Origin: Botryllus schlosseri
Taxonomy: Eukaryota
Direction of reading: 5' to 3'
DNA length: 64,000 nucleotides
Assembly (NCBI GenBank): GCA_051294905.1
Contig: CM119371.1
Span: forward strand, 4,900,001 to 4,964,000
The notes beneath the pieces are model-generated. The model saw only the letters and a list, made by a program, of their open reading frames with translations. It searched no databases and had not been told where the DNA came from. Position 1 is the first letter of the stretch. Every line of letters begins with the position of its first letter. Below, in pieces: positions 787 to 48,456 of this stretch. Made by a program: the position numbers and the translations under genes.

Positions 787-2316
787 AACCCAACTAGGTG
801 TCCACTCCCAACCCATGTCCATTCTTGTCATAAATTTCCGGGAATATTTAGTTGGGTGTGGCTCAAAATGCATTCTTAGTTTGGCTGTCAAAGTCGACGT
901 TTCTTGCTGGGCTCAAATCTATAATCTTCACCTCGATGTTGGTTTTCAGAAATACGTTCTCGAGCTGTCAAGACAAATTTCTCATTCAGTTCAACATGTA
1001 GGCAATATAGCTAAACTAATAATGTAGTTAGTTGAAGATCAACTAACTATTGTTAATTTAACTAGTTCCAGTTCTAATTCTAGTTGCACAGTTTCAAAAA
1101 CTTTAGTTGCTAAACAACTAGAACACATGTGTCAATGTTTGGCGTGAATCGTGATACCGGTATTCTGTTGTTTGATGTTCTTGCAGCCATTGCTAGATCA
1201 GAGACATTACTACTATAAGTGAGGGAGGCTGGGGGTGTATTTTGGGGGTCGAAATCGGTGCATTCAAAAGTCGAAATGCCGAATGATTGGATCTCAAATA
1301 TTTCTCAGCTCATTTACAATACAGCCATTTGTATTATACGTTATTAGTTAGTTTTAGGTTTGTTAGTTGCGGATTCTTAATGTTTGTCACGGTAATTATA
1401 GTTCTTAGAGCGCATTTTGAAAATCGAGAAGTTTGTACATATCTGGTTCCTGCAAGCAATGTCACCTTGATATCTCTGTGAATAATCTTACAATCATGAA
1501 GATAAACAATATCAATACTCATGGGATTGCTAGAATACAAACAACTACAGTATTTGTCAGGCACATTCAAAGCTGCGCTTTTCAACCAGAATTACAATTA
1601 TAGCTACACATTTCCCCCAAATTAGATTAGAATAACTGATTGGTGGTAGAGAACCTGAACACACCGATTCGGTTTCGAATCTAACCTGTTCTATGTCCTT
1701 TATCATGCCTGTCGCTCTTGATAAGAGGAACGCGAAAAGTTTTTCGAATCAATACACGTTACTGTGAATGCATCGTTGAAAGCTGTGAATTAGAATTGCT
1801 TAATTCATGAAAGCCATACAACAAAAATCAAGGTAACTTGATATCAGTTCTAAATTCCCTGTCATAAAGCAACGGAATGACAAATGTCTGTACACCAAGC
1901 TTTGCTAGTTACGTACTATAAAATTCTCCTGCAGTATTTTCAGGAAACCAGAAAATAAATTACAATCGAAATAAGAGCTTGGAAACATTTAACAAATTAG
2001 ATTACAAGTAGATTACCAGTATTTGGTTCTAATTAGTATTATTAGACAACAAGAATTATCTAGTTGTTCAAGTCTGTTAGTAGGCCTAATCAACGTTACA
2101 GAGCTGATGAAATTGTGACCTCCACCCATTGAGAGACATTACAGTTATATCAAGGAAATACTTTTACCTTTCTTTTGTACAACTCGAGAGCGACGTAGAC
2201 AAATCCTTGTCTTCAAAAAATCCGTGAAATCCAACAACATGCTTGTGATTCAAACTGCTATGGAGATTAATCTCTTGACACATTTTGTCTTTCTCATGCT
2301 CATTCACGACCAGTGC
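787..2316 (-). pseudogene. PLK1/polo-like kinase partial copy L5 (exon-2, -3 and -4 relics)
   Basis: Exon 2 at 2316-2168 (cag|[38 protein letters not shown]...|gt); exon 3 3' part about 1515-1466 (IVYLHDCKIIHRDIK|gt); exon 4 at 964-about 787 (cag|LENVFLKTNIEVKIIDLSPARNVDFDSQTKNAF*ATPN*IFPE...). Frameshifts and stops present. Confidence 0.85.
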
Positions 2317-3335
2317 CTGAAATTCAGTTTTGTACAAATTACCGGCTCGATAGTAGACGGTCAAATAACCAACTGTTTTTGAGTACGGCTAGTTTTAGTT
2401 AGTTTTGAAAACTGAGTAGTTCTAGTTCTATTTCTAGTTTCTAGCATTCTGATGTACAGCAGTTTGCACAAGTCAGATGAAATTTGCATTGTATTCAGAT
2501 ACTGTTTTATATGCGGAATGAGTTTTGAACTAGGACAAGAAGCTGAAACGTACAATCAGGAGATATTACCAGTTCACGTAAGTCAGGAGTTAGTTTATTT
2601 TAATAAGGTACCATGCAATGAGAGCCCGACCGATTATATCGTTTGGCCAAAAATGTCGAGTCTTATCGTAAAGTTTGAACGGTATTGCCCATTATAGGTA
2701 AAAATATCAACAATTTTGGTGTCGTGAGAACATGGTAGTGTGCAGTCAGAGAACGGAAGTCTGCACTAACTTGGAATATTCTTATAACTTACAAGTGGTC
2801 AAAATAGTCATCGTTGGAACTCGAGTATAGAAGTAACGTCGTAATTTCTACTCTATTATAAGCAGAAGTAGCGATTTACAAGGAAGGTAATCAAGTAAAC
2901 ATTATACGCCTAGTTTTGCATGAACACTGCACTGTTACATAGGAAGTACACAAGTCGTCTAAAATCATTTGAGTGACTTGAGTAAATAATGCATGTATAC
3001 AGCAAAACCTACTTGAGTACTCTGAATAAGTATAAGTAGTATTGTTACTGACTGCCTCTGCTTACAAGCGTCCTTTGGTCTTTAATGTCTTAGCATAGTA
3101 ACAGCCGTCATTTGTTTGAATAAATGATCTGAAGGTTTGGAATTGTGCCTTAAGCGAGTTGCCATATTATTTCAATAACAGATGAATACGTCGGAGATAT
3201 CAGTGTAAGTGATACTTATCGCTATTAGCTTAAAAATACGATATCGGTTGGGCTCAAGTTATCATGAATGAGACTCGATTCAGAATCGAATCACTTAGGA
3301 AGTCGATTTTGCAAAGACCTGCGAAAAAATCTTAT

Positions 3336-3496
3336 CGTTCAAACTCTGCAGATGACTCCTTTGCTGTAGTTGGCTTTCTGAAAGTATGGGCAAGCAAGTT
3401 GTTCAAGCAGTTTGTGGGCAGCTTCTGTGGAATGTAGCCGTTGAAATACTCACTGGCTCGCACTTTCTTTACAGAGGATTGTCACTCGCCAACTTT
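3336..3496 (-). pseudogene. PLK1-like exon-6 relic (kinase C-terminus), copy L4
   Basis: cag|..LASD...EYFNGYIPQKLPTNCL resembles PLK1 MLQTDPTARP...EFFTSGYIPARLPITCL; frameshifted, donor mutated. Confidence 0.75.
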
Positions 3497-4057
3497 CTGG
3501 TGAAAATCACAAATAGTAATAAAATCACAGACAATAACTCATATTTTGTAAGATTGTTTGGTAACCAGGATTTATGGATTTAAAACTATCATATGAATCA
3601 AAATTTGAATTTCAAATAGGGAACTGTTTCCCTATTTGGACAGGAAGAGATTTAAGTATCATGATTGTAACCACACTGACTATTGAACTTGGCCCTCGAT
3701 GAATTCATCCTTCGGTAAACTCGGCCTATGGTGAATTTGGTAATAAAATCATTATAAATGTCGTGAATTGTATAATAGTAATTTGTCATTGGAGATAATG
3801 GCGAATTGGTGGTGGTGGACATGCCGTACGTATGAATGCCATTATATTCAAGTTCTCAAAAATGGAAGTTTTGTTTTGCGCACACTGTGGTAGATCCCGT
3901 GGAGACGTCGCACTTTCGTGGAGGTGTGCCATGCTGAGGCAAGGTGAGTGTCTGATTAAAAGACTACACCAAGTCGGTTTGGTGCCCTCCTATCTTGTTG
4001 TGCATTGATTTGATAGAAATTTTAATAAATTGATGTCTGAAACATGGCTTGCCATAC

Positions 4058-7000
4058 CAAACACGACTTTATCCGTATAATCCAACCTCTTGCTAATCAA
4101 AATACCGGTAGTGGTGCGGCTGCTGTGGCACTTCCGCCTCATCTGTTGAATTGAAAGCAGTTTTAATATACATAAATTGCACATTGGTCTAGTGCTAACA
4201 ATCTTATCGACAATGTCATTTAAGCGCGAGAGCAGTTATTTGAATCTATGATATTAGAGCAAATCGATATGGACACAGGATTTCTGATAACTTTGAAATT
4301 CAACATTAGTTTTGACTTTTACTGACATTTGTAAACGGGAATATTCAATGCGAAATTCTCTAATATCTGTCAACTTGATAAGAGTATGGAATTCCTAATC
4401 ATTTTACCATTTCGAAAAATTTCAGACAATTCTGCAATTATACATCTGCCATCTTCATGCCACACAGTAAAGACTGTTCGTGAGGTTATCAGGGGTTAGC
4501 TCCAAGCGAAGTCCATTGTTAATAATCACTTATATGTAGCATCTTGTCATTTCTGAATCAGGTGTTAGGTTTCTAGTCGAGATTCTCTCATTATCACGTC
4601 GTAACAGTATGGATGACATGGTAAGTTTAAATATCTGCTTTTTATACGACCACAAACAATATAACGTCATTTATACAGCACATTAAAATCACTGGTTTGT
4701 AGAAGTAGCTTACATTTCATAGAGCAATTCAGCTTAAGATGAAACCTATAAGTGGTTATAATATAGGCCTAAATACCAACCCATATTTACAGCAGACTTC
4801 TGTCTGGGATTTGCATCAATCAATTACTTGAGCTGAGCTTGAAATTCTGTCATATGGAAGTCTGGTGATTGGTTGCTGCATATGATGGTCGCTCTGACTT
4901 GTCACCAACAGGTGTGTGTCTCTGTAGTATCGCACCTGTAAAATGAAATGCTACTTTAAAATATAAAATAACCAGTATAGCAAAATATAAGAAATTCACC
5001 ATGAAGGTAATTCGGCAAATTCCTATCAAACGAGTTCTTGTAAGCCTAGGCTGCTTGGCTTCTTACAAGATTGCTAGCGCCAGAGTTGCGTAACTAGAGA
5101 ATTTTCAGCTTTTTTTGCTTAGATTAGAATTAGAAATATAGATACACATTAATTTCAAAGATAGATTAGAATTAGAATGATTTTGTGATAGCTACAAAGT
5201 TTTTTTCCCAAATCAGAGCACATTTAGATTCGTAACTACGCAGCTATTTCCTAATTAGATTAGAATTGGAACGAGTGAGATCATGAAAATTTGGAAATTG
5301 AATCAAGATAACTTCATATCAGGTCAAAGTTGATTCTCGTGTACGTGAGGATGGCAAATGTCTGTACAGCAAGCTTGGTTCATTTTGCATGACACAGTTC
5401 CTTTGTAGCATTTTTAGGATAACCCAGAAATTAGATGAGGCTGGATATGAGAGCATAGCAACATGTCATAAATTAAATTAGAATCTGATGATCAAAATTT
5501 CGCTCTACTAAATCAACTTAGACATCCAGAATCACCTGGATGCAGCAATTGGCTGATGCTTCAGAGACAAACAAATGGAGGTTGATTGAGAACTGATCCA
5601 GGAATTATGACGCGACCGTAGGTCACTTTGACGTGGTTGAAATCTCGACATTCCTCTGTAAATACCACACATTTACAAAGTAGCCTACTTTCGGGGACCA
5701 CAAGATAACACTACAGACATAAAGGATAGCATCAATTAGTAGGGCTGGCCACAACCATCCACAACTTCAATTAGACTCCATCATCAACTGCAATGATTCG
5801 GAGTCAAGCAGTGAGAGCCATGAAAAATTAGTCGACATTCACATCACGCCAAGAGCCAAATATCAACAATGTTTTAGTATCAATACTTTATTTCTACTTT
5901 CGGAGTCCTCATCAACTCAGTTAGCCGTATCTTAGCATCGAAAAAAGGTTGCTATCATTCTAATGCTAATCTTATTCAAAAATGAATAAAATGTTCTAGT
6001 TGTCCGACTTTGCTTATCTGTGAAGGTGCTAGTTATCGGTTTTATCGGTATTGGCTAAAAAATCTGATTTTGGTCAAGCTCTCATCGTAAACCTGCTGTG
6101 GAATTGTAAGAAATCTCACCGGTGAAGATTGTCTCGCGTTGACATTTGCGATAGGCAAGCAGATGGTTGGTAGTTTTTGAGGCATGTAGGCTTTCAAAAA
6201 GCAGCTGGACACAACTCGCTTGCGCAGAAGGTCCTTGAGATGGGTCAATAGACAACATGCTGTGGACAAAAAAAAATCATGGTAGGTTAGTGTTGATATC
6301 GTGTCGCTATATTCGTATATCTACCGAAAATATACACTTCTTGTCCCTAAAAGTTACCGTAATTTATCAATGAGAATCATAGTTTCATTGGCATTTCCAC
6401 TGTGGAAGGCTGTAAACCTCGATAGGCAATATTGACTACATTGTGATCAAGCCACAGCATTGTCACAAAGTACAGTGAAATAGGTATGGTCGAAAATGAC
6501 TTAATTATCTTTATAATGAGATGTCGCACCGACATTATATTCATAGTGGCAGGGCTGTGATGGCTAGATTCATGACTCGAAACGAGTCCTAATTTTTTAG
6601 TGACACGACTCAAGTCATTTTTTCAGGCTAGTAATACGATTTGACTCGAGTCACCTTGTGTATTGACTAGACTTGTACTCGAGTCATTGTGCATGACTCA
6701 AACCAAGACATATGATTTGGATGATCAAGAAAGACAGCTCATTGTAACTTCGAAGAATATTAAAACCACCACAAGATAGGTAATTGGTCTGTCAGAAACT
6801 GTTAGGTCTGAGGGGAAATACGGTGTTATGAATGTGAACACTTCTACATCATTCTAGCAGAGTTAAAAATTGGTTTGAATCGGTTTGAGCTCAACACTCG
6901 ACAGTTAACACAATGACTTGGACTCGGACTCCAGCCTCAGCACTTGGGCTTGGACTCGACCATCTACTCATTCGCTTGCACTTGACTGGTTGGTGGATAA

Positions 7001-9737
7001 AAAATGACTCGACTTGACTCACTACAAAAGTGATATTGCCTTGCGAATCGGGACCATGTGACTTGGTTACCAACCCTGCATGACGATCGCATAAAATGTG
7101 CATATTTGGAATTTGCATACTCTTTCATAATGTTATGACGCCATGAGAGATACTCAAATATTCGACTCGATTAATAACCAAATCACTCAAGTACTCGATT
7201 TTGCAAAACGCTATCTTTAAGACATATGTAACCTCCTTTTATGAAGTCCCAGTTCAATGTTGCATTACACGCACAAAACACAACCCAGCGACTAGTTGTT
7301 TGCTTAGAAACTGCGTCCCTTCTTTCCGAGATCTTCAGGGGCAATATGGTTGTGTGGGCCTCATGAAGTTGATTTGGTATCCAGGCCAAAATCATCTACC
7401 TTCGCCTCCATGTTATTGTGCAGAAACAGGTTGCCAAGCTGCCAATACAAATGTCACAACTAGTTAAACAAAAGTATTGATACTTGTACATTGTACCAAC
7501 TACCTACTGCTTTTTTGAGTAGTTCAAGTTATCGACGCGGACTTGAAAAGTGAGTAGTTCCGAGTCACAAGTCAATCTCACTTTTATAGTTTTGACTCAA
7601 GTCAAGTCGATTCATTTTCAATTCACCACTGAGTCAGGTCCGAGTCAAAGTCAGCTAGTAGAAAGTGCAGTCCAAGTTACTGTGTTTTGACTCGAGTTCG
7701 GGTCCAAGTCATTCTGTTCACTGTTCAGTTATCAGTCAAATCGCGTTCACTTAATTTCAACTCTCCTCAAGTGATATAGAATGGCTCGAATTCATACTAC
7801 CGTTAATTTCGTCAGTTCAACAGTTTCTGGCCCTATTTTCAAGTATCAGGACTGATATACAAGATACCAATTTTCCAAGTCACAGTGACAGTCCGCCATT
7901 TCACTCATTTCAACAAATGACTCGAGTCATGTCGAGTCATCAAAAATCGCGACTTGAATTTGACTCGAGTCGAGTCATGACTCAAGTCATTACAAACCTG
8001 GCTCAGAGTCATCACGCCAAACAGTGGTATAGGAAGGGCTGAGTATTAAGGGTCGAAACCACCCCTGTTTCAAACTCGAACCCCACAAATTTGAGATGTC
8101 AGTTCTATCTCCGATATAGCTCAGCTCATTTGTAAATTAGCAACCTAAAAATCATTAGCAAGTTGTGTATTGCAGTTAGCTTGCAGCAGATTTTCAATGG
8201 TCGTTGGTTCTTGTTGCGCATGTTGGAAATCCAGTAGTTTATCCAAGTCCACTTTTGAGAGCTTGTAGCGCCATCAATCATTTTACGTTAGTGGTACATA
8301 ATGTGCATAGTTTTATCCACAAATTGACAAACCAATCATCGGTCGGCTCTGGTTCTGACATCATTTTCGAAGAATATTTACGAATGCACCACTGCATACA
8401 ATGTTACCTTGCTATCTCTGTGAATGATTTTACAATCGTGACGATAAACGACACCAAGCAGAATCCGTTGCTTGTGATAACGAGTCTCTGCTTCTGTGAC
8501 GACGCATCTCTTTTTGTAAACTTCCATCAGCGACTGACAACAAAAGTATAATGTAATTAGATCGCTGGAATGAGAAAAACAATAATATTTGTTTGACACA
8601 CGCAAATCAGTGGTTCTCAATCTTTCTGAGTTTGAGGGACGGTAAAATTTGACAGCAGTTTTTGCAGACCGGAAAACCTTCCTAACTTTATTTAATACTA
8701 GCTTTTTATACTGAAGGTGTAATAAATAGGGCTGGCTAAAATAGAGTACCTGAGTGATTTGATTCTGAATCGGGTAATGAGTTTGAGTCACCCATGTTAA
8801 CTTCATAGCAACACCACAAAGAACACAATGCCAATTCTAGTCATATTATAAAGATTATTCGGCACTTTTTTACCATTACTATTTCATCACGCTATGAGAC
8901 AATGCTTTAGGTTGCTCACGACTTCACAGACATGTCATTTTCAGCAACGTGCATAGCTTTGCATTACATGTTTCGTGTACTGCGATACGACCAATCAAGG
9001 TTCACAGATTTTCACAGTGGGAAAATATAATTCCCGAAAGTTCAATTCAGCTCATAGTTAATAAATTTTTTCCATTTTGAGGCATGGAGCGTATATTGTC
9101 AGCACTCGAAACAGTCATTTCATACTACTCGACTCAAATTATCAGAATTGATCTCGATTCAGGTTTGAGTCATTAAATCATTGTGCCCAGCCCGAGTGAT
9201 CACCGTTGTGTCACTAGAAAATGATCACATTATCCAAACTAGATTGGAATTCCAATAATATTGAACATATTTTTCCAAATTAGATTAGAATTTAATTATC
9301 TAGCTGGGAAAAGAAATCAAGTTCAGTTCATATCAATTCGGACTTGATTATCATAAGCATGAGAATAGTTCACCAATCTTGACTTGTTTCACACTATAAG
9401 TGTAGAATTAGTTGACTAATTAGATTTGAATTACATGACAAGTACTTCGTCATATTTAGCCTAATACATTATAGAAGAATATTTATTTGGTTATCCAAGT
9501 CTGTTGGTAATGAACATGACAGATCTAATGCATTTTCGACCGGCGCAGTTAGAGGTACATTACGTTTATAATGAGGAAATACTTTTACACTTCTTCTGCA
9601 CTACTCAAGAACGACGTCGACGAAATCCTTGTCTTGGAACAATCCCTGAAATCCAACGATGTACTTGTGATTGAAACTTCGACGGAGACTGATCTCTTGA
9701 CATATTTGTCTTCCTCATGCTTGTTCACAAGCAATGC
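4058..9737 (-). pseudogene. PLK1-like partial copy L3 (exons 2,3,4,6,7,8); most complete unit, reaches polo-box 1
   Basis: Exon 2 at 9737-9589; exon 3 at 8533-8408 (SLMEVYKKRCVVTEAETRY...HDCKIIHRDSK); exon 4 at 7438-7275 (LGNLFLHNNMEAKVDDFGLDTK...HIAPEDLGKKGRSF*...SLGCVL); exon 6 at 6259-6093 (AYMPQKLPTICL); exon 7 at 4935-4781 (PDFHMTEFQAQLK*LIDANPRQKSAVNM); exon 8 at 4142-4058 (DEAEVP...PVF/ISKRLDYTDKVVFG, cf. PLK1 EEAEDP...FWVSKWVDYSDKYGLG). The exon 7/8 junction G|AT restores Asp. Confidence 0.9.
6550..8000. mobile_element. Two further GACTCGAGTC-rich MITE copies (about 6550-7078 and 7560-8000); relatives at about 1-200, 28020-28213, 37919-38156, 46560-46982, 47456-47992 and 54738-54930
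   Basis: Same internal sequence and palindromic motif arrays as 37263-37844; CAGGG/CAGTG-type ends; TSDs eroded. Confidence 0.7.
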
Positions 9738-11308
9738 CTGGAATTAGATACTAGATTTAGTTGCGGATCTTAAAAATTGAGTAATTCTAGTTCTAGTTGT
9801 GTATGTAAAAATATTTTAGTTGTCGATCAACTAGAAAACACGTGTCTTCGTTTGTCGTGAATCATGATATCGGTTTTCCGTTGTGTGATGTTCTTGCAGC
9901 TGTCTCAGAGTCGTCACTACTAATAATGGTGAAGCCGCAAGGCAAAACCTTATTGCGTACTCTGTAAAAGTAAAGGTACTATTGCTACTGACTGACTCTG
10001 CTTCTACGCGTTCAGATGCATTCTTACTAGTTTATTTCATGTCCAAGTATAGCAACGCCAGCAAAGTGGTTCAAATAAATACTATGAAGGCCTGGAAATA
10101 TGTCTTAAGCTAGTTTCCATATTATTTCAATAGAGGTCGAGGTTATCGGTGAAGGTGCTACATATTGGTATTGGCTCAAAAATAAGATATCTGTCGTGTC
10201 GGGCTCTATTCATGATGAGACTCGAGCACGCGACTCGTAACATAATACTCCATTCAGAATCCAATCAATCAGGAACTCGATTTTGCCAAGACTTACCCAA
10301 ACTCACTGTTGAAACTCAGGAGAGGACGCCTTTGCTGTAGTTGGCTTTCCGAAATTCTAGGCGCCATCATTAATCAGGTTATGGGAAGTTTCCGTGGAAT
10401 GTAGCCGTTGAAATACTTGTTCGCCGGCACTTCCTTTACAGGGGTTGATTTCTAACATTCCAAAGAGAAGATCACAGATACGAACAAAAACAGAGATAGT
10501 ACCCAACATTTTCATAACATTGTTTGTTAATCGGGATTTGTGAATTCAAACCAATCAAGATTCGTATTTGGATAGAAATAGATTCAAGTATCAGATAAGC
10601 AGATTTGCAGACTTGGACAACTAGAAAATTTTCAGCTTTTCCAAATTAAACTAGAATTAGCATTACAGATACAGAGTTAATTTCCATATTAGAACATAAT
10701 TATGATGATATCTACACAGTTATTTCCCAATTAGATTAACATTAGAATGATAGTTACAAATTTTTTTCCGCATTAGATTAGAAAGAGAATAAAAGCTACA
10801 CAGTTTTTATAATAGCTGATTCCGTGAAACCTTGGGACATCGAATCAAGTTCAGTTGATATCAAATCAGAATTCATTCTCATCAGCACAAGAATGGCAAA
10901 TGTCTGTGCAGAAGCTTGGTTGTTTTCACAAGATACAGTTCTCCTGTAGCAATTACAGGAAAACCAGAAATTAGATCAGAATTGAGAGTATAGAAACACT
11001 TGTCATATTGAACAGTTGGTTTGTGGTACAGAACTTGAAGATAGCTTTCAATACAACATCCATTGTAGTAAAATATTTATTCAACTCGAAGACTTTTCGG
11101 GTGCCTCTTTTCAAGAGTTAACGGCACACTAAAGGGATTTAAACAGAATGAAAAGCAAAACCAAAAAGGCGAAGTATGACGCAACAATCAGAAATTACAT
11201 ACCATGAAGTCCGCAATGTAACGATGGCAACAATAACAAACTTGAAGAGTACGATACTAGTAACATAGCATTTTGAAACAAACAATAACAAACACGAATT
11301 AGAACGCA

Positions 11309-12090
11309 CTAATGGGAAATTTGTAAGTTATACAGAAAATCTTTTTGCCTACATAAAATAGGCTTGGTCAATTGGATGATTGTTGATTCTAGGGCTTTCA
11401 AATGAAACAAGGATCTGCCTCGCGCAATGACTGTAAACATTTGGTCATTATAGTTTTGAGCACAAGAAGGGTTCTCACTTAAATGTTGGCCAATTGCCGA
11501 AGCGTATGCTTGGTAATCGTCGTAACAGTCGGTTTTGGCGGCTGATTTGCATTGTCGTGCGAACTCCGTACGGTCATTTGCGCAAGTTTTTGAGCGAATC
11601 AATTTGGGAATGTGTTGCGTTATCCGTTCAAACAATCTTTGTGATGTACGTCCCACATACCTACTATCACAGTGGCACTTAAATTCGTAGACGACGTTAC
11701 TTGCATTTAAAGCAGGAAGTACATCCTTTCGGAAGTTTGGCAGAAGTGGTTTGGTTGTATACACCACATGCGCATTTACACTATAATAACAACGGTGCAC
11801 GGCCGATTTGATCAACTTTTCAAACCGATTCGACACATTGCCTAGCCAAGGTAGATGTAAAAATGCCGGGCATTTTTCCGGTCCATAATTGGGAGGTTGA
11901 TCCGAACGTTTTAACACTCTTGCGAAGGAGCATTTCAATATATGCTCAGGATAGCCATTTTTTGATAGGATAGAATGGATCTCATCCAATTCACGTGGCA
12001 ATTTTTCTGGCGAACAGATACGCAAGGCCCGATAAACCAGAGATGATATTAGGTTGAGTTTTCGCCGCTTCGGGCAGAAAGAATCCCAAC
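11309..12090 (-). CDS. Penelope-like ORF C-terminal fragment: RT thumb plus GIY-YIG endonuclease
   Basis: WDSFCPKRRKLNLISSLVYRALRICS...LSKNGYP (PLE thumb), then NVVYEFKCHCDSRYVGRTSQRLFERITQH...SAIGQHL...LKALESTII (PLE GIY-YIG). The ORF-track N-terminus upstream of 12090 is antisense read-through of the inverted arm. Confidence 0.9.
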
Positions 12091-12609: not shown

Positions 12610-12646
12610 AACTCTTGAAAAGAGGCACCCGAAAAGTCTTCGAGTT
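12610..12646 (+). ncRNA. Candidate minimal type I hammerhead ribozyme (U3-A8 variant) in the PLE pseudo-LTR; mirror copy at 11083-11119 minus
   Basis: AACTC-TTGAAAA-GAGGCACCC-GAA-AAG-T-CTT-C-GAGTT, followed by AATAAA. Stem I AACTC/GAGTT; core UUGAAAA; short stem II; GAAA; minimal stem III AAG/CUU; UC cleavage site. Confidence 0.7.
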
Positions 12647-38160: not shown

Positions 38161-38829
38161 TGCGTCATCACGGAACCAGAGTCTAGTTATGATATGCAAC
38201 ATATTTTGCTTGGAGTCCTTAATCTTCATACTGGTAAAATCATTCACACGGATATCAAGGTGACATTTTGTTGCAGTGGTAACGTACTTGTACAAACTAC
38301 TGGACTATTGAAATATGCTACTAGTACTAAAACGAGACTTGCTCACTTTCCAGAATTTTCGACTAGAACTAGAACGAACGACAATTAAGAATCCACAACG
38401 AACTACTTAACTTGCATATGAATTACTGAATTGCCATGAACTAAAAAATAAGAACATGACACAACAGAAAAACGTTATCATGATTCATACAAAATGTGTT
38501 TTCTAGTTGCCCGACAACCAAACTTTTCAAATCTGCAACTAAATCTAATTAAAAAAGCAGTATTTTGTTGGCTATCAACGAACTAGATTGGTAATTTGTA
38601 CAAGTCTGGATGCTTGTGTAACAAAATGCGACATTTGTATTGACAGCTGAAGAATCGATTCCTGAACAACAATATAAAGATGAAGATATTCTGGCCTAGC
38701 TACCAAATCCGACTTTGACTACCAAAAAAAGACTACATTATGCGGCACACCCAACTGTATTGCCCTGGAAGTTCTAGGAAAATAAGGACACAGTTTCAAA
38801 GTGGACACCCGGTCGTTGGGTTGTGTTAT
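38161..38829 (+). pseudogene. PLK1-like partial copy R2 (exons 3,4)
   Basis: Exon 3 at 38161-38259 (VITEPESSYDMQHILLGVLNLHTGKIIHTDIK|gt); exon 4 at 38647-38829 ([45 protein letters not shown]|gtgagt), which keeps the TLCGTPN activation loop. Confidence 0.88.
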
Positions 38830-39507: not shown

Positions 39508-39645
39508 GAAATGTCATCAGAAAGACAAAATGTGTCAGGAGATCATCAATGTTGCTGCTGGAATCACAAGCAAGTCGTTTGATTTTGCGGATTTTTCCAA
39601 GACGAGGATTTTTTCTACATCGTCCTCGAGTTGTGCAAAAGAAGG
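39508..39645 (+). pseudogene. PLK1-like exon-2 relic, copy R3
   Basis: cag|..HQKDKMCQEII...GFFQDEDFFYIVLELCKR|gt, frameshifted. Confidence 0.8.
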
Positions 39646-40236: not shown

Positions 40237-41784
40237 GCTTTGCTGGTGGATGATCGTCAGAAAGACGGAATGTGTCAAAGTATCATCAATATCGCATTTT
40301 GAATCACAAGCACGTCATTGGATTTTGCGGAATTTTATCACTCGCTGACTTGGATAACCAATTGATATTAAGTAAACTTATTTTTGGTGGATTTCATTTG
40401 CGGATTCCGTAATTCTAGTCTAATTTGTAAAAAATAAATAATATATAGCTGCCACAAAAGGTAAACAAACTGAGCCAATGAGAGATTGAATTTATCAATG
40501 AGAATTATGGTTCGATGGTATTTTCCACTGTGGAAAGCTACAAACCTCGATAGGTCATATCACAGCATACGTAACACGTAGCACAAAGCTAAACAAGTCA
40601 CTTGAAATGACATATCTGTGAAGTCGTGATCAACTCACAGCATTGTCGTAATGTGTAATGTAATCGGTATGTTTTGCATATTTACAAACTTAGCAAATTA
40701 TCCATGCTGGTATGGCATCATGATAAGTGATGCTCCAATAGTAGGTTAAGAGCCACTGATTCAGATGTTGCCAACAAATAATATTGCTGTTTTCATCTTA
40801 TCAATTTGATTACCTTTCCTTTATGTTTTCAGTCGTTGATGGAAGTTTACAAAAAAGACGCGTCATCACAGATCCAGAGACTCGTTATTGCATGCGACCG
40901 ATTCTGATTCGTGTCGTTATCTTCACGATTGTAAGATCATTCGCAGAGGTATCAAGGTAATAATTGTAGCGTAGTTGTTCAATAAAACTAGTTAGAGCGA
41001 TTGCCTGTTATCTAGTTTTGTCAAAGTTTTCCATGTGCTCATTAATCTAATTTCTGGTTTTTCTGAAATTGATAGATTGGAACTATATCTTGTGAAACCA
41101 ACCAAACTCGGTGTACAGCCACTTGCCATTCTTGAGCTTGTGCGAATAAACTCAGATTTGATATGAAATGAACTTCATCCGATGTCCAAGGTTTTGTCAA
41201 ATCAGTAATTCTAATTGTCATTTAATTTTGACAAATTTGTGTAGCCGTCATTCTAATTACTGTCTGATTTGAAGAAAAACTGTTTAGTTTTCATTCTGAT
41301 TCTAGTCAAATTCGAAACAAAAACTGTGTAGCTGTCATTCTAATTGTACTCTCATATGGAAAAAAACTTTGTAAATGTACTTTAATTCTCATCCTGATAT
41401 AATTTCCTGAAGCTGAAAATTTTCTAGTTGTTTAAGTCTGCAAATCTGCTTCTCCTGATCGTTGAATCTCTTCCTATTCAAACGCGGAATTAGTTTACGA
41501 TATCAAATCTATATCTGCATGCGTATTATAGTTCTAATTCCACACATCTTGATTTCTAAATATATTTGGCAATATGTGAGTTAGTATCTGTGATTTGATT
41601 ATTATCTGTGCATTTCTCACTAGAATGTTGGCAAGCGACCCGTCTCATTGAACCTCCGTAGAAGAAATACTGGCGAGCGAGTTCTCTAACGGCTACATGT
41701 CACGGAAACTGGCACAAACTGCTTGACCTGGCGCCCAGGTTCTCGGAAAGTCGTCACCAAAGCGTCCTCAGCAGAGTTTGAACG
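40237..41784 (+). pseudogene. PLK1-like partial copy R4 (truncated exon 2, exons 3 and 6)
   Basis: Exon 2 at 40237-about 40335; exon 3 at 40833-40956; exon 6 at 41624-41784 (MLASDPSH*TSVEEILASEFSNGYMSRKL...). Confidence 0.82.
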
Positions 41785-42590: not shown

Positions 42591-44241
42591 GCACTTCTCG
42601 TGAAGCATCATCCGAAAGACATAATGTGCCGAGAGATCCGCCTCCATCGCAGTTTGAATCACAAGCAAGTCGTTGGATTTCACGGATTCTTCCAAGACAA
42701 GGATTTACATTGTTCTCGAATTGTGCAGAAGGCAAAAGAAGGGTAAAAAAATTATTTACTTGACACATGTCCAGTAGTGGTATGTGTGGTAACAGTATAT
42801 ATGATGCACACACACACCCTGGCCCGACCGCATAACTCATAAAACTTGTCACGCAGCTGTACTTGACTACTCCAATTTGTGAAATGTTCCTGTACTCTCA
42901 TTCTTATTCTAATCTATTCACTGGTTTTCCTAAAAATGCTACAAGAGAACTGTATAGTGCAAAACGAACCAAGCTTGTTGTACCTATACGTACAGACATT
43001 TGCCATTCTCATGCTTATGAGAGCAAACGCACAATTGATGAAATGAACTTGATTTGTGTTTTATGTCTATTGCGAATTATGTAATTATATTTCTAAATAA
43101 ATTTTGAAAAATATTTCGCTGTCTTTCAACTTCCCATCTAATTTAGGAAAATATAGATATCTTAGATATTCCCAACAAACAATATTATTGATTTCATTAG
43201 ATCAATCCAATTATCTTTTTATTTTGTTGTCAGCCACGGATGGAGCTTCACAAAAGGAGGCGTGCCATCACAGGACCAGATACTTGTTGTTGCATGCAAC
43301 AGATTCTGCTTGGAGTTGTTTATCTTCAAGATCGTAAGATGATTCACAGAGATATCATGGTAATATTGCTTGCAGTAGTGCATTGTGCTACGTCAGAGGT
43401 GGTCAGTAACGATGGAACGTGCCAAGCTTACTGTACAGACATTTGCGATTCTTGTGCTTATGAGAAGGAACTCTGGTTTGGTATGAATTGAACTTCATTC
43501 CATGTCCCAAGGTTTCGTGAAATCAGTCACGGTACTTTAATCTAATTTTGAAAAATCTGTGTAGCTATCATTCGAAATTTAGTCTGATTTCAAGAAAAAT
43601 GGGGCATCTTCAATTCTAATTCCAATCGAGTACCATAAAATGTGTAGCTATTATTATAATTTCAATCTAATTTCGAAAATTGTGGACATATCATCATAAA
43701 TATACTGTAATATGGAAAAACTTTGTATCTGGAATGCTAATCCTAGTCTAATTTGAAAACGGGGGAACATTTTATAGTTGTCCAAGTCTACATATAGGTT
43801 TATCATGATACTTGAATCTCTTCATTTCCGGAAACGGAAATAGTTTACTATTTTAAAGAATTTCCGGAAGTTTTGTTGACCAATGTCTAAGTTGAAGCAA
43901 AACCATTTAAAATATACATTGAAATAATTTTCCAACCACAGAGACTTAATTCAGTCCACAAAGGGTTAAATCTTGATTTGTTTTATTGTTTGAAATCCAC
44001 AAATCCTGATTGCCAAACAATTTTATAAAAACATGAGTTACTATCTGGGATTTGATTACCATTTGTGATTTTGTCACTGGAATGTAGGCGAGTGACCCGA
44101 CTCAACGGCCCTCTATAGAAGAAGTGCTGGCGAGCTTGAACGGCAACATTCCTCAGCAACTACCCACAACCTACTGGACGATGGCGCCTAGAATTTCGGA
44201 AAGCCGACCACAGCAAATGCTTGCTCTCCTGAGTTTCAACA
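42591..44241 (+). pseudogene. PLK1-like partial copy R5 (exons 2,3,6)
   Basis: Exon 2 at 42591-42742 ([38 protein letters not shown]); exon 3 at 43234-43359 (MELHKRRRAITGPDT...MQQILLGVVYLQDRKMIHRDIM); exon 6 at 44081-44241 (ASDPTQRPSIEEVLASLNGNIPQQLPTTYWTMAPRISE). Confidence 0.88.
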
Positions 44242-47200
44242 GTGAGTTTTTCGTAGGTCTTGGCAAAATCGAGTTCCTGATTGATCGGATCTGGATCGAG
44301 TATTACGTTTTGAGACGCGTACTCGAGTCTCATTCATGATCACTAGAGCCTGACCGATATCGTATTTTTGAGCCAATACCAACAAGTAGCACCTTCACTG
44401 ATAACCTCGATATATTCGACCTATTTTGAAATAATATGGCAACTAGCTCAAGACACATTTCCAAACCTTCAGCACATTTATTTGAACCACTTTTTGCGGC
44501 CGTTGCTAGACTTGGACATGAAATAAACTAGAAAGGATGCAACTAACGCATGTAAGCGGAGTCAGTCCGTAGCAATAGTAGAGAAAACTAAAAGGATTTG
44601 CCTGCGGCTTCACCATTATTGGTAGTGATGACTCTGAGACGGCTGAAAGAACATCACACAACGGAAAACCGGTATCATGATTCACGACCAACGAAGACAC
44701 GTATTTTCTAGTTGATCGGCAACTAAAATATTTTTACATGCACAACTAAAACTAGAACTACTCACTTTTTAAAAGCCGAACTAAAGCTATTATTCCAATT
44801 TCAGGCATTGCATGTGAAGTAGCAGGAGAAAGATGAATGTATCAAGAGATGAGTCTCCGTCGAAGTTTAAATCGCAAGCACGTCGTTGGATTTCAAGGAT
44901 TGTTCCAAGACATGGATTTTGCCTACGTCGTTCTCGAGTATCTAGTGTAAAAGAAGGTAAAAGAATTTCCTCGTTACAAATGTAATGTACCTGTTACTGT
45001 GCTGGTCGAAAATGCATTAGATCTGTCATGTTCATTACCAGCAGACTTGAACAACCAGATCATTATTGTTGTATACCGTAATATATTAGGCTAAATAGGG
45101 CGAAGTACTTGTGATGTAATTCAAATCTAATTAGTCAACTAATTCTACATATGTAGTTTGGTGAACTATCCTCATGCTTATGATAATCAAGTCCGAATTG
45201 ATATGAACTGAACTTGATTTCTTTTCCCAACTAGGTACTTAAATTCTAATCTAATTTGGATGAATGTGTTCAATATATTTCTAATCTACTTTGAATAATG
45301 TGAAATTTTCTAGTGACACAACTGTGATCACTAGTGCTGGGCACAGTGATTGGATGACTCAAATCTGAATCGAGTATCAATTCTGATAATTTGAGTCGAG
45401 TAGTAGGAAATGTTTGTTTCGAGTGCTGAAAATATACGCTCCATGCCTCAAAATTGAAAATTTATATCAACTATGAGCTGAATTGAACCAGTGGGAATTA
45501 TATTTCTCGCTATGAAAAGCTGTGAACCTTGATTGGTCGTATCGCAGCATACGAAACATGTAGTACAAAGCTATTCACGTTACTGAAAATGACATGTCTG
45601 TGAAGTCGTGAGCAACCTAAAGCATTGTCCCATAGTGTGATGAAATAGATATGGTAAAAAAGTGCCAAATAATCCTTCTAATATGACTAGAATTGGCATT
45701 GTGTTCTTTGTGGTGTTGCTGTGACTTTAACACGAGTTACTCAAACTCATTACTCGATTCAGAATCAAATCACTCAGGTACTCTATTTTAGCCAGCCCTA
45801 TTTATTTCACGTTCAGTATCAAAAAGCATGTATTAAATGAAATTTGGAAGGTTCACCGGTCTGCAAAAACTGTTGTCAAATTTGACCGTCCCTCTAACTT
45901 AGAAAGATTGAGAACCACTGATTTGCGTGTCAAACGTATATTATTGTTTTTCTCATTCCAGCGATCCAATTACATAATACTTTTGTTGTCAGTCGCTGAT
46001 GGAAGTTTACAAAAAGAGATGCGTCGTCACAGAAGCAGAGACCCGTTATCGCAGGCAACGGATTCTGCTTCATGTTGTTGATCGTCACGATTGTAAAATC
46101 ATTCACAGAGATATCAAGGTAACATTGTATGCAGTCGTGCATTCGTAAGCAATCTTCGGAAATTTTGTCAGAAACAGAGCTGGCCGATAATTGGTTTGTC
46201 AATTTGGGGATGAAACTATGCACATTATCTACCACTAACATAAAATAATAGATGGCGCTACAATCTCTCTAAAGTGGACTTGTACAAACTACTGGATTTT
46301 CAACATGCGCAACAAGAATTGGAACTGCTCACTTTTCCTAATTCTTTACTAGTACCAACAACCATTGAAAATCAGCCACTAACTAACTAATACACAACTC
46401 GCTAATGATTGTTTGGTTAATAAATTACAAATGAGCTGAGAAATATCGGAGATAGAATTGGCATCTCAAATTGATGGGGTTTTTAGTTTAAAACGGGAGT
46501 GGTTTCGACCCCCAATACTCAGCCCAGCCTGTACCATTGTTTGGCACGATGACTCAGAGCTAGGGCTGTCATGAGTCAACTCAAGTCAAACTCGAGTCGC
46601 GCTTATTTGGTGACTCGTCTTGACTCGATACATATGACTGTCACTGTAACTTCGAAGAATAGTGAAGTCGCCACATGATTGGTATTCCCTATATCAGTCT
46701 TGAAAATAGGGCCAGAAACTGTAAGACTGATGAAAATAACGATAGTATGAATGCAAGTGATTCTATATCACTCGAGGAGAGTTGGACAAAGTGAATTGAA
46801 ACGGATTGTAATGATAACTGGACATTGAACATAATGACTTGGACTCGAGTCAAAACGCCATAAATCAGACTACACTTTTTACTATCTGACTCTGACTCGG
46901 ACTTGAGTCGGTGGTGAATTGAAAATGAATCGACTTGACTCGAGTCAAAACTTTAAAAAGTGAGATTGACTTGTGACTCGGAACCACTCACTTTTCAAGT
47001 CCGCATCTATAACTTGAACTACTCAAAAACAGTAGGTATTGGCCAGCAAGTAATTGGATTGGTAGTTTGTACAAGTCTGTTTACTTTTGTTTAAATAATT
47101 GCGAAATTTGTATTGACAGCTTGGCAACCTGTTTCTGAACAATAACATGGAGGCGAAAATGATTTTGGCCTGGATACCAAATCAACTTTATGAGGCCCAC

Positions 47201-48456
47201 ACAACCATATTACCCCTGTAGATCTCAGAAAGAAGGGACGCAGTTTCGAAGGAAACAACGAGTCACTGGGTTGTGTTTTGTGTGTGTAATGCAACATTAA
47301 ACTGGGACTTCATAAAAGGAGGTTATATATGTCTTAAAGATAGCGTTCTGCAAAATCGAGTACCTAAGTGATTTGGTTATTAATCGAGTCGAATATTTGA
47401 GTATCTCTCATGACGTCGTAAATTCCAAATATGCACATTTTATGCGATCGCCATGCAGGGTTGATAACCAAGTCACAAGGTCCCGAGTCGCAAGGCAATC
47501 TCACTTTTGTAGTTTTGACTTGAGTCAAGTCGAGTCATTTTCAATTCACCAACCAGTCAAGTGCAAGTGAATGAGTAGATGGTCGAGTCCAAGCCCAAGT
47601 GTTGTGGCTGGAGTCCGAGTCCAAGTCATCGTGTTAACTGTTGAGTGTTGAGCTCAAACTGATTCAAACCAATTTTCAACTCTGCTCGAATGATTTACAA
47701 TTGCTCACATTCATAACACCGTATTTCCCCTCAGACCTAACAGTTTCTGGCAGACCAATTACCAATCTTGTGGTGATTTTAATATTCTTTGAAGTTACAA
47801 TGAGCTGTCTGTCTTGGCCATCCTAGTCATATGTCCTGGTTTGAGTCATGCACAATGACTCGAGTACAAGTCGAGTCAATACACAAGGTGACTCGAGTCG
47901 AATCATATTACGCGCCTGGAAAAATGACTCGAGTCGTGTCACTAAAAAATTAGGACTCGTTTCGAGTCATGAATCCAGCCATCACAGCCCTGCCACTGTG
48001 AATATAATGTCGGTACTACATCTCATTATAAAGATAATTTAGTCATTTTCGACCATACCTATTTCACTGTACTTTGTGACAATGCTGTGGCTTGATCACA
48101 ATGTAGGCAATACCGCATATCGAGTTTTACAGCCTTCCACAGTGGAAATGCCATTGAAACTAATTCTCATTGATAAATTATGGTAACTGTTAGGGACAAC
48201 AAGTGTATATTTTCAGTAAATATACGGATATAGCGACACGATATCAACACTAAAATACCATGATTTTTTCAGCATTTTGTCTATTGACCCATCTCAACGA
48301 CCTTCCGTGAAGCCAGTTGTCTCCAGCTACTTTGTGAAAGCCTACATACCTCAAAAACTACCGACCATCTGCTTGCCTATCACAAATGTCAACGCGAGAT
48401 AATCTTCACCGGTGATATTTTTACACAGCAAGTTAACAATTAGATCTTGACCAAAA
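43160..48456. repeat. Inverted segmental duplication A, right arm
   Basis: See left arm. Lacks the Penelope insertion together with some flanking sequence. Confidence 0.9.
44805..48431 (+). pseudogene. PLK1-like partial copy R6 (exons 2,3,4,6); inverted twin of L3
   Basis: Exon 2 at 44805-44956; exon 3 at 45993-46118; exon 4 at 47120-47279 (LGNLFLNNNMEAK/DFGLDTK...); exon 6 at 48273-48431 (IDPSQRPSVKPVVSSYFVKAYIPQKLPTICL). Confidence 0.88.

Follow-up and report, generated by a model that had tools for sequence, protein, structure and literature searches.

PLK1 is an essential mitotic kinase gene that is normally present in low copy number. In Botryllus schlosseri, a 64,000-nucleotide stretch of contig CM119371.1 (positions 4,900,001 to 4,964,000; hereafter the window, with the contig abbreviated C1) contains many copies of PLK1 exons in repeated modules. 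The question raised by this locus is whether the amplification of a cell-division kinase serves some function or has left only debris. The original prediction, made from the letters of the window, associated the pattern with germline conflict, and suggested truncated dominant-negative products or small RNAs directed against the parent gene. The evidence described below points instead to non-functional, unprocessed pseudogene debris of the organism's own PLK1 that was probably spread by segmental duplication, a reading to which we assign a probability of about 0.8.

PLK1 exon copies in the window

We searched the window by tblastn with the ten exon peptides of an intact PLK1 gene from the same genome (PB, C1:6285475-6298474). 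These peptides alone recovered three copies of E1, nine each of E2 and E3, four of E4, six of E6, and one of E8. With an ascidian PLK1 (P0011) as query, 33 HSPs passed E<=1e-3, among them one extra match, the single copy of E7 (4782-4883). The E8 copy (4053-4097) scores weakly in tblastn (E=0.01) and is backed by a nucleotide match with an E-value of 5.8e-9. A candidate for E5 (37132-37254) aligns with the PB peptide at 32% identity (E 0.002-0.007), and is counted as doubtful because its score is marginal and the ascidian query gave no match there. With E7 and the doubtful E5, the window holds 34 exon copies (Table 1), the same tally as originally predicted. All copies within 797-18306 are on the minus strand and all within 34433-48375 are on the plus strand. 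The leftmost copy (M6) extends beyond the window, where E8-E11 are located at C1:4898553-4896154.

Exons E2, E3, E4, and E6 are over-represented; the original prediction had noted this for the kinase N-lobe exons. The polo-box part (E8-E11) is reduced to one degraded E8 piece without any E9-E11, and none of the matches listed in a Pfam search for POLO_box falls within the window. This skew recurs across the whole surrounding field of about 2.5 Mb. No Rfam family reached its gathering score anywhere in the window.

When the E2 copy at 2164-2388 was compared with PDB, 12 of the 14 matched sequences were PLK1 (E 5e-11 to 1e-9), with E-values of 2e-6 for PLK2 and 1e-5 for PLK3. Nucleotide identity between the window copies and the PLK1 exons of the same genome is 66-91%. 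These similarities indicate that the exon copies derive from PLK1 and from no other kinase, as predicted. Among named PLK1 proteins, the closest belong to ascidian tunicates. No field of tunicate PLK1 fragments is described in the titles and opening lines of abstracts listed by literature searches.

Table 1. Modules of PLK1 exon copies and other features, in positions of the window
Feature	Positions	Strand	Remarks
Module M6	797..2313	-	E2 + E3 + E4
M6 E2	2167-2313	-	frameshift
M6 E3	1463-1537	-	3' third only
M6 E4	797-967	-	3 stops
M5, solitary E6	3337..3501	-	78% nucleotide identity to parent; frameshifting indels
Module M4	4053..9708	-	most complete copy in the window; without E5
M4 E2	9592-9708	-	stop and frameshift
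M4 E3	8405-8536	-	clean
M4 E4	7307-7441	-	3 stops, indels
M4 E6	6147-6270	-	truncated
M4 E7	4782-4883	-	stop, frameshift
M4 E8	4053-4097	-	frameshift
M3, solitary E6	10305..10439	-	5'-truncated; stop and frameshift
Module M2	12837..15192	-	E1 + E2 + E3
M2 E1	15066-15192	-	indels
M2 E2	14131-14217	-	stop, frameshift
M2 E3	12837-12938	-	stop, 7-nt deletion
Module M1	15528..18306	-	E1 + E2 + E3
M1 E1, two pieces	18241-18306 and 17332-17409	-	stops, indels
M1 E2	16714-16860	-	stop
M1 E3	15528-15653	-	clean
Module M7	34433..37254	+	E1 + E2 + E3 + doubtful E5
M7 E1	34433-34602	+	indels
M7 E2	35289-35412	+	2 stops, frameshifts
M7 E3	36595-36720	+	clean
M7 E5	37132-37254	+	doubtful
Module M8	38167..38815	+	E3 + E4
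M8 E3	38167-38262	+	5'-truncated, indels
M8 E4	38693-38815	+	stop, 5-nt deletion
M9, solitary E2	39509..39645	+	stop and frameshift; the only E2 of 9 without a following E3
Module M10	40290..41783	+	E2 + E3 + E6; without E4, E5
M10 E2	40290-40349	+	truncated
M10 E3	40830-40959	+	two 1-nt deletions
M10 E6	41613-41783	+	stop, indels
Module M11	42594..44243	+	E2 + E3 + E6; without E4, E5
M11 E2	42594-42735	+	frameshifts
M11 E3	43231-43362	+	clean
M11 E6	44070-44243	+	stop
Module M12	44837..48375	+	E2, E3, E4, E6; without E5; inverted counterpart of M4
M12 E2	44837-44938	+	3 stops
M12 E3	45990-46121	+	clean
M12 E4	47117-47250	+	stop, indels
M12 E6	48274-48375	+	truncated
Inverted duplication, left arm	6065..10558	.	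pairs with 43982-48459
Inverted duplication, right arm	43982..48459	.	pairs with 6065-10558
Penelope-like retroelement (tentative), young insertion	11043..12686	.	inside PLK1 array
C2H2 zinc-finger exon ZL	19615..21657	-	uninterrupted 681-codon frame; 84-bp finger array, 23.4 units
C2H2 array ZR	57582..59495	+	inverted ZL paralogue (88%); 438-codon open frame, then two in-frame stops

Intact parental genes

Two intact PLK1 copies, PA and PB, are located on the same contig, 0.9 and 1.4 Mb from the window (C1:5.79 and 6.29 Mb). All 11 exons are open in both. Their coding sequences differ at 42 of 1698 bases and in no amino acid, and this pattern of 42 silent changes without a replacement suggests very strong constraint; their introns are 79-96% identical. 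Over exon 9 the parents share 82% identity with the PLK1 of Ciona and Styela, and they are ordinary PLK1 genes. The window fragments come from this ordinary PLK1 of the same genome, and what was initially described as a divergent PLK1 is better regarded as a decayed one.

Co-amplified introns and loss of coding capacity

Parental exon order and intron spacing are retained in the window copies. In eight of nine cases E2 is followed by an E3 on the same strand at a distance of 0.48-1.19 kb (the parental intron is 0.92 kb), and homology with the parent continues for 12-240 nt into the introns flanking the exon copies. The spacings and the intron homology indicate amplification at the DNA level with introns included, in agreement with the original prediction. 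An origin as a processed pseudogene (retrocopy) was rejected on account of the intron-length spacers between exon copies and the intronic homology.

There is no intact PLK1 gene in the window. Scored as 35 pieces (one E1 copy is split in two), the 34 copies include five that are full-length, in frame, and free of stops, all of them E3; the other 30 pieces are disabled by truncation, frameshift, or stop. Each clean E3 adjoins a disabled exon, adjacent pairs of clean exons do not occur, and no reading frame in the window crosses two adjacent exons. A continuous E1-E6 kinase coding sequence, which we take as the mark of a functional PLK1, is absent from the window and present at C1:5.79 and 6.29 Mb. 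Against simple decay, the share of clean E3 copies (5/9) is somewhat above what we would guess at 17-19% divergence.

The surrounding field and its zinc-finger genes

The 64-kb window samples a field of about 2.5 Mb (C1:4.03-6.51 Mb) that includes both intact genes and about 90 partial PLK1 copies. With the parents excluded, the field holds at least about 23 copies of E1, 86 of E2, 93 of E3, 63 of E4, 7 of E5, 68 of E6, and ~19-21 of E9, counts that rest on search tables and are lower bounds; sequence was read directly for 264 kb plus 70 kb. Most matches to the abundant exons are located in the field (95 of 106 for E3 and 88 of 92 for E2), and the E2 and E3 matches elsewhere represent other kinases or small contigs. 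Three other contigs carry a 3-kb segment with PLK1 E8-E10 that is 97.9-100% identical.

C2H2 zinc-finger genes with open frames alternate with PLK1 fragments in the field. Their frames measure 400-905 codons, and they match only zinc-finger families in Pfam. Of 19 matches to the zinc-finger leader, 16 fall in the region of the PLK1 fragments. PLK1 fragments and zinc-finger genes occur together in duplicated blocks about 10-20 kb long, some of them direct and others inverted copies. Two examples are C1:4772532-4791597 paired with 4907694-4929085 (81.7%) and C1:4711827-4723374 paired with 4820652-4834333 (82%); coordinates and identities only are used here, since chained lengths are inflated by self-matches of the zinc-finger arrays. 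Within the window, ZL shares the strand of module M1, lies immediately upstream of it, and is co-duplicated with PLK1 debris. Differences between ZL and ZR are distributed evenly over the codon positions (100:103:92). The zinc-finger genes may have been the driver of the duplications. A parental unit composed of a zinc-finger gene and PLK1 was considered and not confirmed, since the 7-9 kb upstream of PA and PB showed no zinc-finger gene. Equal-scoring matches also suggest large mirror pairs around the window, at C1:4.60 and 5.27 Mb and at 4.78 and 5.05 Mb.

The PLK1 array in the window is interrupted by an element whose two arms, 11043-11645 and 12083-12686, are inverted repeats of each other with 99.5% identity. 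It encloses a 327-aa ORF (11312-12292, minus strand) that matches no Pfam family; the nearest Atlas clusters carry HTH_animal, with GIY-YIG in 13-19% of members, and the Penelope-like assignment drawn from them is offered as a lead only. Pfam likewise gave no family for a 114-aa ORF at 48582-48926. Short dispersed repeats, shared with parental introns, occur at several exon-block junctions; one of these (44624-44789) immediately precedes the E2 copy at 44797 and has its mirror at 9741-9925.

Substitution patterns

In trees of E2, E3, E4, and E6, every fragment is placed apart from the PA and PB pair, and the fragments in the 264 kb read form one clade separate from the two intact genes. Pairwise divergence is 6-35% between copies and 9-34% between copies and parents. 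Substitutions on terminal fragment branches are spread evenly over the codon positions (259:256:294, chi-square p=0.19), and those on parental branches are distributed as 0:0:30. For 12 of 13 mutual-nearest fragment pairs (one was dropped, its members each being closer to the parent than to the partner), the differences are 59:60:64 and pN/pS is 0.71. Between the inverted arms, which are 84% identical with gaps counted, mismatches in aligned columns amount to 64/624 in exons (10.3%) and 446/3743 outside them (11.9%; Fisher p=0.25). In their recent history the fragments have evolved neutrally.

Deeper branches carry a mild excess of third-position changes, both within the fragment clade (96:80:138, p=2e-4) and on its stem (17:6:32), and some of the fragment ancestors may therefore have worked as PLK1 paralogues for a time. 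Measured against the parent, the fragments have a pN/pS of 0.40, below the ~0.5 that we would expect had they been neutral from the start. Early fragment history may have been partly under constraint. Relaxation of base composition together with ascertainment bias could be an alternative source of both the internal excess and the value of 0.40.

Transcription

Transcription was assessed in four RNA-seq runs from ordinary or single-cell mRNA libraries whose tissue is unrecorded, in which about 5.8 billion letters were read. Depth over bins with PLK1 fragments was 0-2.6 without strand bias, and 87-95% of the placed reads continue into unlike sequence, so they originate elsewhere. A segment of the same stretch (49676-50342) is covered 61-80x in three runs; read mapping therefore works, and this segment is not a matched control for the fragments. 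Among the matches listed for the window there was no RNA record (seven entries with shares of 0.05-0.34, none of them RNA).

The truncated dominant-negative products once suggested find no support in these mRNA-type runs or in the frames, none of which spans two adjacent exons. Similarly, the ideas of germline conflict and of small RNAs against the parent gene so far gain no support from the even codon positions on terminal branches and between nearest pairs, the equal divergence of exons and introns, or the low RNA-seq depth. The original prediction had named neutral substitution on all branches, with neither transcripts nor small RNAs, as the sign of passive segmental-duplication debris, and the evidence leans to that side.

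Origin of the fragments

The debris would go back to ancient tandem duplicates of PLK1, complete or partial, that arose beside the gene. These copies probably lost function and underwent internal deletions, of E5 early and of E4 or E1 in some lineages, and such deletions would have yielded E2-E3-(E4)-E6 units. Within a zinc-finger cluster that was itself growing, unequal crossing-over and repeated segmental duplication, both direct and inverted, may then have raised the number of these dead units, carried along as passengers. At present the fragments would be inert, possibly except as homology that promotes further rearrangement.

A history of true birth-and-death, in which complete paralogues of a functional PLK1 multigene family were active, died serially, and left fragments as a record of their turnover rather than of copying from a unit already dead, is possible and we judge it unlikely. 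The third-position excess on stem and internal branches and the pN/pS against the parent are consistent with it, as are the two paralogues still alive, the nearly full-length old copies (E2-E11 with E5 included at C1:4704216-4710887; E2-E4 plus E8-E11 at C1:4896154-4902313), and the PLK1 genes and partial copies of Daphnia pulex, as given in the accessible part of that report (PMC2680839). However, E2 and E3 (86 and 93) greatly outnumber E5 (7), E1 (23), and E9 (~20), and therefore most of the copying started from units already shortened. The nearest pairs, which represent the most recent duplications, are neutral, and the excess itself may arise without selection if GC-richer third positions relax to an AT-rich background. 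The inverted arrays might alternatively constitute a small-RNA or hairpin locus, a germline source of dsRNA or piRNA precursors that tunes or attacks PLK1 and could reflect germline conflict. Inverted arms do exist, larger mirrored pairs are suggested by equal-scoring matches at C1:4606624(+) and 5265971(-), and it is a cell-division kinase that was amplified. Moreover, window fragments and parental exons share 17 exact matches of at least 20 nt (longest 26 nt, with PA and PB counted separately), and the arms together with these few matches would permit some small-RNA targeting. Nevertheless, the arms are merely 84-89% alike and about 33 kb apart, and so would make a poor hairpin. Between them exons are no better conserved than introns and codon positions are even, so nothing preserves complementarity to PLK1; identity to parental exons is just 66-91%, and depth in the four mRNA-type runs is near zero without strand bias. 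We consider such a locus very improbable. An equally slender chance attaches to a more elaborate proposal, by which the field would be an ampliconic, palindrome-rich germline region whose arrays would set PLK1 dosage through precursors of piRNAs or endo-siRNAs transcribed in gonads, with the zinc-finger genes repressing or licensing the arrays and PA and PB kept as a dosage pair. If true, this would bear on how germline lineages compete.

Capture and spread of gene fragments by transposons, in the style of Pack-MULE, Helitron, or CACTA elements, could account for the dispersed repeats at exon-block junctions (for example 44624-44789) and for the E8-E10 segment found at 97.9-100% identity on three other contigs. 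Fragments of E2-E6 are nevertheless undispersed, with the great majority of E2 and E3 matches in a single 2.5 Mb region, and they keep parental exon order and intron spacing within duplicated blocks of 10-20 kb that include zinc-finger genes. Common terminal repeats were not noticed in an unsystematic look, and we hold this route to be highly improbable. An inflated copy number from uncollapsed haplotypes or mis-joins deserves hardly any credence. The region is highly repetitive and similar pieces are present on C17 and on the small unplaced contigs C93, C94, C147, and C183, but the divergence of copies from each other and from the parents is far beyond the allelic range, the 264 kb read contain zero N, and lesions are distinct between copies.

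Comparison with known systems

Unprocessed pseudogenes in regions of segmental duplication resemble the field: they too are DNA-level copies with introns and lesions, neutral, located near the parent, and left in mosaic order by repeated block duplication, direct as well as inverted. The scale of the field is unusual, with some 90 partial copies, all from a single essential, single-domain kinase gene, spread across 2.5 Mb. Its exon skew is strong (E2, E3, E4, and E6 abundant, E5 and polo-box exons rare), and two intact parents with identical proteins are located inside it.

The KRAB-ZNF clusters of human chromosome 19 are tandemly expanding clusters of polydactyl C2H2 genes. Expanding C2H2 clusters share with the field long open arrays (up to 905 codons here), local blocks in direct and inverted orientation, dying copies such as ZR with its two in-frame stops, and neighbouring sequence carried as a passenger. 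Here, by contrast with KRAB-ZNF clusters, the passenger is a recognisable essential kinase gene; the comparison covers the finger exons, for which Pfam showed zinc-finger families and nothing else.

Amplified germline arrays involved in conflict or silencing include Stellate/Su(Ste), the Dox/Nmy hpRNAs, and Slx/Sly, which are young, homogeneous, and transcribed, with open frames or small RNAs. Analogues of a hairpin locus are Su(Ste)/Stellate and the Dox-suppressing hpRNAs of Drosophila, and the pseudogene-derived endo-siRNAs of mouse oocytes. Like conflict arrays, the field has a gene fragment at many copies and inverted layouts in one chromosomal region. Unlike them, its copies are old (6-35% apart), broken, neutral, and unseen in the four mRNA-type RNA-seq runs.

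Within the same gene family, Daphnia pulex has three PLK1 genes and six partial copies, POLO-F to POLO-K, that are truncated, rearranged, or stop-bearing and that the authors took for pseudogenes or for what is left of partial duplications; some have expression evidence (accessible part of PMC2680839). Both cases combine several functional PLK1 paralogues (two in B. schlosseri) with broken copies. In contrast to the field, the accessible part of that report gives six partial copies rather than about 90, and describes no array interleaved with zinc-finger genes.

Significance

If the arrays fed silencing of PLK1 through gonad small RNAs, the locus would be of far greater importance, and nothing here points that way. 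As read here, it matters chiefly for gene annotation and for how genomes evolve. Automated gene prediction would find only scraps, or might report spurious truncated kinases over 2.5 Mb. The field also offers a dated, layered case of segmental-duplication dynamics in a zinc-finger cluster of an invertebrate chordate. It shows that an essential mitotic kinase gene, normally present in few copies, can be duplicated some 90 times with no new functional gene as the outcome, while two paralogues with identical proteins are retained under very strong constraint.

PLK1 fragments in the window

AT-rich throughout (GC 0.36–0.43), the window covers C1:4900001–4964000, and its stop-to-stop ORF list holds two long C2H2 zinc-finger frames and, of kinase sequence, nothing but the motif scraps that the original prediction described. 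One such scrap (2164–2388, minus strand) has PLK1 as its best match among solved structures. PLK1 accounts for 12 of its 14 matched sequences (E 5e-11 to 1e-9), ahead of PLK2 (2e-6) and PLK3 (1e-5), which confirms the proposed Polo identity.

We counted fragments by tblastn with the exon peptides of PB, one of the two intact PLK1 genes of this genome (PA and PB, the parents, with coding exons E1–E11), and with a Styela PLK1. Together the hits reproduced the predicted tally of 34 exon copies exactly, in 35 pieces: three copies of E1 (one split in two), nine each of E2 and E3, four of E4, six of E6, one each of E7 and E8, and one doubtful copy of E5 (32% identity, E 0.002–0.007). The Styela protein, an independent query, gave 33 HSPs in the window and no match to this E5 copy. 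Minus-strand fragments lie within 797–18306 and plus-strand fragments within 34433–48375. Taken strand by strand, the fragments fall into twelve modules, with types that include E1-E2-E3 (twice), E2-E3-E4-E6-E7-E8, E2-E3-E6 (twice) and E2-E3-E4-E6. For the module furthest left, E2-E3-E4, the matching E8–E11 lie beyond the window edge, and it thus represents an old, nearly whole gene copy without E1 and E5–E7.

The fragments were copied as DNA, introns included. In eight of nine cases E3 follows E2 at 0.48–1.19 kb, the parental intron measuring 0.92 kb, and homology to the parent (66–91% nucleotide identity in exons) reaches 12–240 nt into the flanking introns. The prediction of DNA-level amplification with introns is therefore upheld, as is that of no intact gene. 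When each piece was aligned pairwise to its parental exon, only five of 35 were full-length, in frame and free of stops; all five are E3, each adjoins a disabled exon, and no reading frame in the window spans two exons.

Comparison of the window with itself revealed three inverted repeats (see table). The pair with arms at 26683–31828 and 51189–56277 contains no PLK1 piece and no long ORF, and is younger than the PLK1-bearing arms. A young retroelement is inserted within the array at 11043–12686. Pfam gave no family for its 327-aa ORF; the nearest Atlas clusters carry HTH_animal, with GIY-YIG in 13–19% of members, which suggests a Penelope-like element. A tandem repeat overlaps ORFs that are repeated on both strands.

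Features of the window and of related loci (plain numbers, window positions; C1, contig CM119371.1; other C numbers, further contigs of the assembly)
Feature	Location	Strand	Remarks
Leftmost module	2313–797		E8–E11 at C1:4898553–4896154
E8 copy	4053–4097
E7 copy	4782–4883
Doubtful E5 copy	37132–37254
Inverted duplication	6065–10558 / 48459–43982		84%
Inverted pair	26683–31828 / 56277–51189		5.2 kb, 92.8%
Inverted zinc-finger arrays	19.6–21.7 kb / 57.6–59.5 kb	− / +	88%
Left array (ZL)	19615–21657	−	84-bp unit x23.4; 681 codons open
Right array (ZR)	57582–59495	+	84-bp unit x21.5; two in-frame stops
Retroelement	11043–12686		inverted arms 99.5% identical
Tandem repeat	32640–33127		177-bp unit, 2.7 copies, 89% matches
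PA	~C1:5790872–5807146	−	complete PLK1 gene
PB	~C1:6285475–6298495	+	complete PLK1 gene
Third, partial PLK1 copy	~C1:6302400–6308500	+	directly downstream of PB
Shared block, direct	C1:4772532–4791597 / 4907694–4929085		81.7%
Shared block, inverted	C1:4711827–4723374 / 4820652–4834333		82%
Left-flank inverted pair	C1:4747724–4751914 / 4753456–4757680		4.2 kb, 99.5% identical, 1.5-kb gap
Open frame, 1347 codons	C1:4889720–4893760	+	reverse transcriptase, RNase H, integrase
E8–E10 segment with introns	C8:20709684–20712842		147-codon open frame
E8–E10 segment with introns	C16:22462891–22466049
E8–E10 segment with introns	C16:22487652–22490810
E8–E10 segment with introns	C12:20418600–20421758
E8–E10 segment with introns	C12:20459780–20462938

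The two intact PLK1 genes

A polo box profile and an insect polo protein, run against the genome of the same animal, led us to PA and PB, which are inverted relative to each other and separated by about 480 kb. Guided by ascidian PLK1 proteins, we found all 11 coding exons of PB to be open. Over exon 9, Ciona and Styela PLK1 are the closest named proteins (82%), and unnamed transcript-derived ones reach 85–86%. Of 1698 coding bases compared, 42 differ between PA and PB without changing a single residue, and the introns of the two genes are 79–96% identical. These comparisons point to two paralogues of some age and not to an assembly duplicate, with very strong purifying selection acting on both; exon-biased gene conversion between the copies of this essential kinase gene is an alternative to such selection. 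No zinc-finger frame occurs within 7–9 kb upstream of either gene. In the partial copy downstream of PB, pieces of E1 and E3 are degraded and E8, E10 and E11 are well kept, E10 being stop-free and 91% identical to a tunicate PLK1.

A 2.5-Mb field of fragments

We searched the whole assembly (495.5 Mb, 219 contigs) exon by exon. C1:4.03–6.51 Mb takes in nearly all PLK1-like matches (95 of 106 for E3, 88 of 92 for E2), and we refer to it as the field. The counts are lower bounds, the E3 search having recovered eight of the nine window copies. The exon skew noted in the window extends throughout: with both parents left out, the field contains at least 86 copies of E2, 93 of E3, 63 of E4 and 68 of E6, versus at least 23 of E1, 7 of E5 and about 19–21 of E9. 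The difference between E3 and E5 is not an artefact of detection, because both query peptides are 44 aa long. On these counts, most copying was of units in which E1, E5 and the polo-box exons were already missing.

A few PLK1 pieces occur elsewhere, on C17 and on the small contigs C93, C94, C147 and C183. The E8–E10 segments on C8, C12 and C16 are at least 3 kb long and 97.9–100% identical to one another, with E9 protein 93–94% identical to the parents; here a polo-box piece has spread recently and separately from the C1 field. The search tables also contain fragment pairs of equal score on opposite strands, for example at C1 4606624 (+)/5265971 (−) and 4779393 (−)/5055868 (+). The midpoints of these mirror pairs (4.60 versus 5.27 Mb and 4.78 versus 5.05 Mb) fall at window positions of about 36.3 kb and 17.6 kb, and these equal-score rows suggest large inverted duplications, nested and with the window at their centre.

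Association with zinc-finger genes

Over the 264 kb made up of the window and its 200-kb left flank, groups of PLK1 fragments are interleaved with C2H2 zinc-finger genes whose frames (353–905 codons) are still open. Duplicated blocks contain both. The non-repetitive leader of a zinc-finger gene in the window has 19 matches in the genome, 16 of them in the field, and most head long open frames. ZL and ZR diverge by about 14%, with differences spread evenly over codon positions (100:103:92), a pattern compatible with fingers whose evolution is relaxed or diversifying, the open frame presumably being selected in at least one copy.

Two further features lie in the left flank. A transposon or foldback structure of very recent date probably accounts for the 4.2-kb inverted pair, and the 1347-codon frame 6 kb from the window is apparently an intact LTR-retrotransposon pol gene.

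Selection on the fragments

Compared with the parent, 57 fragment copies from the 264 kb gave a pN/pS ratio of 0.40 (pN 0.16, pS 0.41; codon positions 519:421:846), values that take in the constrained parental lineage. Among mutual-nearest fragment pairs the differences were 59:60:64 and pN/pS was 0.71; this covers 12 of 13 pairs, the members of the other both being closer to the parent than to each other. In the inverted arms of the window, mismatches affect 64 of 624 exon positions (10.3%) and 446 of 3743 non-exon positions (11.9%; Fisher p=0.25). We also mapped changes by parsimony on FastTree trees of E1, E2, E3, E4 and E6 (chi-square tests). Terminal fragment branches are even (259:256:294, p=0.19). 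Since nearest pairs are also even and exons diverge like introns, the fragments have been neutral since their recent duplications.

Third positions are in excess on internal branches of the fragment clades (96:80:138, p=2e-4) and on the stem between parents and fragments (17:6:32, p=9e-5), and parental branches carry 0:0:30. The E2, E3, E4 and E6 trees place PA and PB together with every fragment on the opposite side. One possible source of the codon signal on deeper branches is a period in which some ancestors still worked as paralogues; another is base composition relaxing once function was lost.

Expression

Four RNA-seq runs of the same species label were matched to positions 33001–53000 at 92% identity or more, placing 540–3286 reads per run. 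Of these, 87–95% continue into dissimilar sequence and so come from related repeats elsewhere. Depth in PLK1-fragment bins is 0–2.6 on either strand, which argues against abundant polyadenylated transcripts of the fragments, a result that bears on mRNA-type runs and not on small RNAs or gonad-restricted expression. A peak at 37.0–38.3 kb is a dispersed repeat with 10–12 copies in the 264 kb. The segment 49676–50342 (core ~49716–50061, ~345 nt), single-copy in the 264 kb, reaches 61–80x in three of four runs, so read placement works. On either side the loose ends of its reads agree, and every read has a 1-nt deletion at 49715. This depth comes either from an exon of a gene not yet annotated or from reads of a near-identical paralogue. 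Exact matches of 20 nt or more between fragments and parental exons are few, 17 in all, the longest 26 nt (PA and PB counted separately).

Origin of the array

We consider the fragments to be unprocessed pseudogene debris of PLK1, with a probability of about 0.8. The data establish where the fragments come from, that they carry lesions, have recently been neutral, extend over a whole region and were duplicated along with zinc-finger genes. For the order of events, we infer that old tandem copies, whole or partial, arose beside PLK1. Loss of function would have been followed by internal deletions, E5 first, that left E2-E3-(E4)-E6 units, and unequal exchange with direct and inverted block duplication would then have multiplied these units in an expanding zinc-finger cluster, the PLK1 pieces being its passengers.

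The alternative of a former functional PLK1 multigene family bears on the early history and partly coincides with this account. The codon signal on deeper branches is compatible with it and the exon skew is not, and we regard it as rather unlikely. A small-RNA or hairpin locus is very improbable. Neither the small-RNA idea nor that of germline conflict found support, so that the original prediction holds in part, for DNA-level amplification and exon skew. Capture of PLK1 fragments by transposons is slightly less probable still, given their restriction to one region, and an assembly artefact is scarcely credible for copies 6–35% divergent from one another.

In architecture the C1 field resembles two features of vertebrate genomes, fields of mosaic segmental duplication and zinc-finger clusters that expand in tandem. 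It is unlike amplified conflict arrays such as Stellate/Su(Ste) and Slx/Sly, which are young, homogeneous and transcribed. The literature we searched held no description of a PLK1 fragment field in tunicates. The nearest published precedent that we found is Daphnia pulex, with three PLK1 genes and six partial copies that carry stops or rearrangements and that the authors take for pseudogenes or for what is left of partial duplications (PMC2680839). The Botryllus field is a duplicated pseudogene array, ordinary in kind and unusual in scale.
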